Below, in pieces: positions 47,762 to 47,800 of a DNA stretch of 64,000 nt. A model generated the notes under the pieces. The model did not search any database. It saw nothing but the letters and a program-made list of their open reading frames with translations, and had not been told where the DNA came from. The stretch lies in NCBI RefSeq assembly GCF_003334355.1, contig NZ_QOWP01000001.1. One strand, 5' to 3'. How positions within the stretch are numbered: the stretch's first letter is position 1; every line of letters starts with the position of its first letter. The stretch comes from Escherichia coli. GTDB taxonomy: Bacteria; Pseudomonadota; Gammaproteobacteria; Enterobacterales; Enterobacteriaceae. The translations under genes were made by a program, and so were the position numbers.

Positions 47762-47800
47762 TTTGCATAAAAATTCATCTGTATGCACAATAATGTTGTA
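47762..47800 (+). promoter_or_regulatory. Tandem ARG boxes (ArgR operator) in the argR control region
   Basis: tttgcataaaaattcatc-tgt-atgcacaataatgttgta; the first box fits TnTGAATwwwwATTCAnw well, the second is weaker. Confidence 0.55.

Follow-up and report, generated by a model that had tools for sequence, protein, structure and literature searches.

A pair of ARG boxes with a 2-bp spacer upstream of argR in Escherichia coli

The argR locus and its two ARG boxes

The window analysed here is a stretch of Escherichia coli DNA of 64,000 nucleotides (64 kb) in which argR is separated from mdh by an intergenic region of 368 bp. In MG1655, this neighbourhood consists of degS, mdh (on the minus strand), argR and yhcN. 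The protein encoded by the argR reading frame was found to be identical to MG1655 ArgR and hence the cognate repressor is present in this genome. The whole mdh-argR intergenic region carries the K-12 sequence with no difference, and the 39-bp stretch at 47762-47800, where the earlier note had proposed a pair of ARG boxes, is a base-for-base match to MG1655 3384641-3384679. The features of the region are listed in Table 1.

Table 1. Features of the argR gene and its upstream region in the window
Feature	Position	Strand	Description
Distal promoter-like site	47707-47734	+	TTGATA-16-TAACAT, from consensus scan; putative function
ARG box 1, strong, promoter-distal	47762-47779	.	TTTGCATAAAAATTCATC; 17.4 bits; 2 mismatches to WNTGAATWWWWATTCANW
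Putative sigma-70 promoter inside the operator	47763-47791	+	-35 TTGCAT (47763-47768), 17-bp spacer, -10 CACAAT (47786-47791)
2-bp spacer	47780-47781	.	TG; from register scan and absence of indels in the alignment
ARG box 2, weak	47782-47799	.	TATGCACAATAATGTTGT; 6.9 bits; good left half, degenerate right half
Shine-Dalgarno-like sequence of argR	47815-47820	+	GGGTGA; 4-9 nt before the ATG; GGT invariant or nearly so in the alignment
argR coding sequence	47824-48294	+	156 aa, intact open reading frame, annotated as argR in RefSeq genomes; source of the repressor and controlled gene

Approximately 1 kb around the argR operator was matched in all of the complete E. coli genomes in RefSeq (5426/5426), many of them at 100% identity. 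A 79-bp query comprising the operator and the leader (47745-47823) had zero differences in 5368 of these 5426 genomes, an invariance that says little because E. coli genomes are very alike overall. A second copy of the argR region was observed in a single genome out of the 5426, on a record classed as a plasmid.

ARG boxes were scored with a symmetrised log-odds matrix derived from twenty boxes in ten arginine-regulon operators of MG1655, from which argR was left out. The training boxes represent the best 18+3+18 pair in each of the control regions of carA, argF, artJ, artP, argA, argG, argD, argE/argC, argI and hisJ, and these ten pairs agree with the published ArgR operators. All ten training operators have a 3-bp spacer and usually two decent boxes each. 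The median score of the twenty boxes is 17.4 bits whereas the weakest of them has 8.4 bits. In addition, the 64-kb window was subjected to a plain consensus search with WNTGAATWWWWATTCANW in which up to three mismatches were allowed.

The first box lies exactly where the earlier note had placed it, with two mismatches and a score of 17.4 bits from the argR-free matrix, which equals the training median and is the highest for any single box in the 64-kb window. This imperfect palindrome of 18 bp fits sixteen of the eighteen consensus positions. When the whole window was dinucleotide-shuffled, 9% of the shuffles contained a box of 17.4 bits or higher; for the 368-bp intergenic region, the corresponding figure was 0.5%. 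On the upstream side of box 1, no partner box was found in E. coli, the scores there being -34 and -19.5 bits, and the consensus search at three mismatches or fewer returned no second box adjoining box 1.

The matrix did identify a second box on the downstream side, at a distance of 2 bp from the first. In this register (47782-47799) the sequence scores +6.9 bits and fits thirteen of the eighteen consensus positions, whereas the register with a 3-bp gap (47783-47800) scores -12.4 bits and fits ten. In shuffled intergenic sequence, 0.4% of positions score 6.9 bits or higher, which amounts to about 1.7% for the four allowed neighbouring registers taken together. The right half of box 2 lacks C15 and A16, and the score of the whole box lies below that of the weakest training box. 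The true operator is 38 bp in length and spans 47762-47799. Of the earlier proposal, the location of a pair before the argR start holds (25-62 bp upstream of the ATG at 47824), as does the statement that the second box is the weaker one (6.9 bits against 17.4 for box 1), while the proposed separation of 3 bp turned out to be one base off. The matrix scan that had been suggested as a check of that proposal bears out the first box at 17.4 bits and not the second, which scores -12.4 bits at the position originally given.

Both Tian et al. 1992 (J Mol Biol 226:387) and Maas 1994 reportedly list the argR operator with a 2-bp separation, a spacing that agrees with the register scan and with the conservation described below. 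Spacers between the ARG boxes of ArgR operators are either 2 or 3 bp (PMC4381063), with 3 bp being the canonical spacing of E. coli operators (PMC6640053). The 2-bp spacer of argR is non-canonical, yet it is within this range. A text search of the available papers for a statement of 2-bp spacing for argR found nothing relevant, and a text search with the box sequences found box 1 only in PMC7826281 and box 2 nowhere. One paper with twenty five mentions of 'ARG box' (PMC11417348) was rejected as a source for argR as it deals with argI.

At 2-bp spacing, the two boxes together amount to 24.3 bits (17.4 + 6.9). This pair score was reached in one of 200 and in none of a further 300 shuffles of the window (1/500). 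When the mdh-argR intergenic region alone was shuffled, 0.02% of the sequences reached it; the ARG-box pair is real and not a product of chance. A chance resemblance of AT-rich intergenic sequence with no regulatory role might be suspected from the abundance of single boxes, as twelve consensus-like boxes with three mismatches or fewer were found in the window against 5.9 expected, and both gltD and rng contain isolated boxes of 15-16.5 bits. It is the pair, however, that shuffled sequence so seldom reproduces; moreover, the pair is free of indels across an order of bacteria and is positioned directly before the gene of the repressor itself, for which repression has been published (PMC3658269). 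We therefore attach a negligible probability to the chance reading.

Only one pair in the window scores higher than the argR operator. This pair (ACTGCATAATCAATCAAA att ACCGAAATTTCATGCATA, 24606-24644) has a 3-bp gap and a score of 27.0 bits, which none of the 500 shuffles reached. It maps by blastn between yhcC and gltB, 540-578 bp upstream of the gltB ATG (25184), and is the only strong pair in that intergenic region. For gltBDF, an ArgR footprint over two consensus-like sites (-361 to -318) has been reported (Paul et al. 2007, PMC1784095), and the pair at 24606-24644 is very likely this footprinted operator, an identification that presupposes a leader of about 220 nt, a length that is unstated. 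The 'gltB promoter' qPCR amplicon of Cho et al. maps to 24923-25060. The two top pairs picked by this simple matrix in the 64-kb window are the gltB site, which is outside the training set and serves as a positive control, and the argR operator.

Weaker ARG-like sites were also observed in the window. A cluster in the ispB-sfsB intergenic region (5203-5267), 100-165 bp before sfsB (5368), comprises a pair at 5229/5250 with 3-bp spacing (6.8 + 10.8 = 17.6 bits) in addition to a lone box of 12.7 bits at 5203. This pair is suggestive only, being equalled in thirteen of 300 window shuffles. The sfsB gene is not known to be an ArgR target. Single boxes of 15.3-16.5 bits with no partner occur at 30286, 31717 and 60850, one of them in gltD, one in a region that replaces gltF to yhcG and one in rng, and these isolated boxes are probably chance matches in AT-rich stretches. 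In the replacement region (31077-32133), an MG1655 segment of about 8.4 kb containing gltF-yhcA-yhcD-yhcE(IS5)-yhcF and part of yhcG is absent and approximately 1 kb is found instead, including a stretch (31130-31663) in which the match to yhcG is only 92%. On either side, the window and MG1655 are colinear, at 99.6% for 7339-31076 and at 99.4% from 32134 onward, the part upstream of 32134 being shifted.

Conservation of the operator

A total of seventy nine argR loci, ranging from Escherichia albertii to Endozoicomonas, were collected from species-representative genomes containing ArgR and each was anchored on its strongest upstream box. The upstream regions of twenty three Enterobacterales species were aligned using MAFFT. 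In forty two of the seventy nine gammaproteobacterial species, the 150 bp preceding argR contain a box that scores 15 bits or higher, compared with 1.7% of shuffled sequences. Given this excess, the autoregulation of argR looks like an ancestral trait of this part of the Gammaproteobacteria. In every Enterobacterales genome that has a strong box, it is located 61-66 bp before the argR ATG, with the exception of one Pantoea where the distance is 83 bp.

The most conserved feature of the alignment is the block TTGCATAAAAATTCA-N5-TGCATAAT, which is ungapped and nearly invariant in the twenty three species, always with the 2-bp gap. The columns TTG.ATAAAAAT.CA of box 1 are invariant or nearly so, and are followed by five variable columns and then by TGCA.AAT, which corresponds to the left half of box 2. 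This left half (T-G-C-A-(T/C)-A-A-T) is kept across the Enterobacterales. No indels were observed between the blocks of box 1 and box 2, whereas both flanks are diverged and gapped.

The same register was found wherever box 1 is strong. In each of the twenty four Enterobacterales that have a strong box 1, a number that includes the window, the 2-bp register scores higher than the 3-bp register, and the latter is negative in every one of them. The layout with two boxes and a 3-bp spacer, the second box being at 47783-47800, has in its favour that this is the canonical E. coli spacing (PMC6640053) and that it occurs in each of the ten training operators. Apart from its -12.4 bits in the window and its uniformly negative scores in the relatives, such a layout would have a G and a C at the positions where the invariant T3 and G4 belong, and we give it next to no credence. 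The 2-bp layout is the one followed in the remainder of this study.

In contrast to its left half, the right half of box 2 differs between families. In most Enterobacteriaceae, box 2 reads TATGCATAAT and scores 12-15 bits, which is inside the training range. A C at position 7 was found only in E. coli, E. albertii and two Citrobacter, and this substitution costs approximately 6 bits. Pectobacterium, Brenneria, Photorhabdus and Providencia have lost the right half, and their box 2 scores from -0.3 to 4.6 bits; the same four genera have a weak box on the upstream side of box 1 at a distance of 3 bp. In the Pectobacteriaceae and Morganellaceae, the partner box may have been relocated upstream with a 3-bp gap.

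A different arrangement was observed in Shewanella. The argR loci examined from this genus (L049, L051 and L054-L058) have a strong ARG box with a weak one downstream of it at a distance of 2 or 3 bp, the latter ending in TTGAC(A/T). The operator in Shewanella seems to overlap a -35 and not a -10 hexamer, a layout unlike that of the Enterobacterales.

Putative promoters and the proposed autoregulation

Two promoter-like sites were found upstream of argR. The identity to K-12, the matrix scores, the register and the conservation were computed directly in this work, whereas the occlusion of the promoter by ArgR, its hexamers and its start site are inferences from the sequence. The proximal site (TTGCAT-17-CACAAT) lies inside the operator and agrees with the sigma-70 consensus at seven of twelve positions, which is below the threshold of the promoter scan. 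Both hexamers and the 17-bp distance between them are conserved in the alignment of twenty three species, where most relatives have CATAAT as the -10 hexamer. Transcription from this proximal argR promoter is predicted to start near 47798, in which case the operator would cover the whole promoter.

The distal site (TTGATA-16-TAACAT) agrees better with the consensus than the proximal one and was the only promoter-like match of the consensus scan in 47400-48400. It is held in a block, AAATTTGATAAAATCCCGCTCTTTCATAACAT (47703-47734), that is strongly conserved among the Enterobacteriaceae and is possibly a second argR promoter that is independent of the operator. Transcripts from such a promoter would be expected to start near 47741 and to read through the operator. 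Two argR promoters, one of them overlapping the operator and being autoregulated, were reportedly described by Lim et al. in 1987 (PNAS 84:6697). We also observed a perfect 6-bp inverted repeat (TCAGCC-N8-GGCTGA, 47739-47758) directly upstream of box 1, at the predicted distal start, the GCC/GGC core of which is kept in several Enterobacteriaceae. If transcribed from the distal promoter, this repeat could fold into a 5' stem-loop. In the interval 47390-48660, no RNA element was found by an Rfam scan, just snoRNA matches at chance level.

The position of the proximal promoter affects how the conservation of box 2 is to be read. The invariant columns A, A, A and T of box 2 correspond to positions -11, -9, -8 and -7 of the -10 hexamer. 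Since the conserved left half coincides in this way with the putative -10, conservation alone is no proof of ArgR contacts in box 2. Box 1 might then be the sole ArgR-specific site, with the left half of box 2 (GCA(T/C)AAT) being kept as a -10 hexamer and the ARG likeness of box 2 being incidental. The low score of box 2, which is under all twenty of the training boxes, agrees with such a reading, as do the lack of conservation of its right half outside the Enterobacteriaceae and the range of -0.3 to 4.6 bits in the four genera named above.

Several observations argue for the second box nevertheless. The T3 of box 2 is nearly invariant and its G4 is invariant, and both are located outside the -10 hexamer. 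The distance between box 1 and box 2 never varies, and box 2 attains 12-15 bits in most Enterobacteriaceae. Single boxes are reportedly bound poorly by the ArgR hexamer, as Charlier 1992 and Tian 1992 are said to have found. Lone boxes would by that account be poor sites, yet the argR promoter is measurably repressed (PMC3658269). Lastly, the roles of box 2 as a -10 hexamer and as an ArgR box can coexist. We consider it improbable that box 1 acts alone.

The preferred reading is the one with two functional boxes. We hold it to be highly likely that two 18-bp ARG boxes, 2 bp apart, make up the E. coli argR operator and are positioned over a weak sigma-70 argR promoter, and that ArgR exerts a partial autorepression through them. 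ArgR is known to regulate its own gene (PMC7505660). The argR promoter is repressed and the affinity of ArgR for it is about 10-fold weaker than for the promoters of enzymes, of which seven are given, as a result of which the baseline is higher and the derepression peak smaller (PMC3658269). An affinity that is about 10-fold weaker fits with the degenerate box 2 and the 2-bp gap. The autorepression by ArgR that the earlier note had suggested is supported, as the operator and ArgR are identical to those of K-12, box 1 is the top-scoring box, the pair is conserved and autoregulation has been published.

In the mechanism that we propose, plentiful arginine would cause an arginine-loaded ArgR hexamer to occupy both boxes on one face of the DNA. 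The bound repressor would then occlude the -35 hexamer, which lies in box 1, and the -10 hexamer, which lies in box 2, of the proximal promoter and argR transcription would be lowered. Binding is expected to be weaker than at the biosynthetic operators due to the degenerate box 2 and the non-canonical 2-bp spacing, and this weaker binding would make repression partial, such that a basal level of the repressor is maintained. The putative distal promoter upstream of the operator probably adds expression that is operator-independent or less sensitive to it.

A further suggestion, which we regard as possible though on balance doubtful, concerns the origin of this architecture. The 2-bp gap and the half-degenerate box 2 might represent a conserved design in the Enterobacterales and not decay, in that the left half of box 2 would double as the -10 hexamer while the gap would set the optimal distance of 17 bp between the hexamers. 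On this suggestion, E. coli, E. albertii and Citrobacter, with their T-to-C change at position 7 of box 2, would have both a weaker -10 hexamer and weaker binding of ArgR, which might re-tune the set-point of the autoregulation in this lineage.

Comparison with known ArgR operators

The pair of ARG boxes is the same element as the argR operator of E. coli K-12: the sequence, the place and the gene are the same here and nothing differs. The K-12 operator was reportedly described by Lim et al. in 1987 and by Tian et al. in 1992 and is listed in RegulonDB/EcoCyc; its published sequence is reported to be TTTGCATAAAAATTCATC TG TATGCACAATAATGTTGT, with a 2-bp gap that agrees with the register found by the matrix. 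The autoregulation of argR via this operator has been textbook knowledge since the late 1980s and is a standard example of the single-input-module network motif. The operator is already known and is nothing new in kind, and the outcome of this analysis is a correction of the proposed layout by one base (2-bp spacer, 47762-47799). Two points are mildly new, namely the conservation of the 2-bp architecture across the Enterobacterales and the possible double use of box 2 as the -10 hexamer. Both functions of box 2, as a -10 and as an ArgR site, would be weakened by its lineage-specific T-to-C change.

Sequence from this operator has also been used in metabolic engineering. A 2020 study (PMC7826281) employed a 'consensus' ArgR decoy, TTATTTGCATAAAAATTCATT, and its primer flanks (…GGGCTGACTG and TGTATGCACA) are the native flanks of the argR operator. 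The decoy is in effect box 1 of argR with three bases changed.

The operators of argF, argI, argA, argD, argECBH, argG, carAB, artJ, artP and hisJ likewise consist of tandem imperfect palindromes of 18 bp with a TGAAT/ATTCA core. In the biosynthetic operators, the boxes overlap the -10 and/or the -35 and RNA polymerase is excluded; for these and the transport operators the promoter overlap is published (PMC6640053), whereas for argR we infer it here. The gltBDF operator (PMC1784095) is a tandem ARG-box pair too, which was found by the same matrix and has been footprinted with ArgR. It differs from the argR operator in having a 3-bp spacer and in being located more than 300 bp upstream of the start with no promoter overlap, and it must for this reason repress by another route. 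The biosynthetic and transport operators share the 3-bp spacer, while the spacer of argR is 2 bp and its second box is weaker than any of theirs, a combination that matches the approximately 10-fold lower affinity reported for its promoter (PMC3658269).
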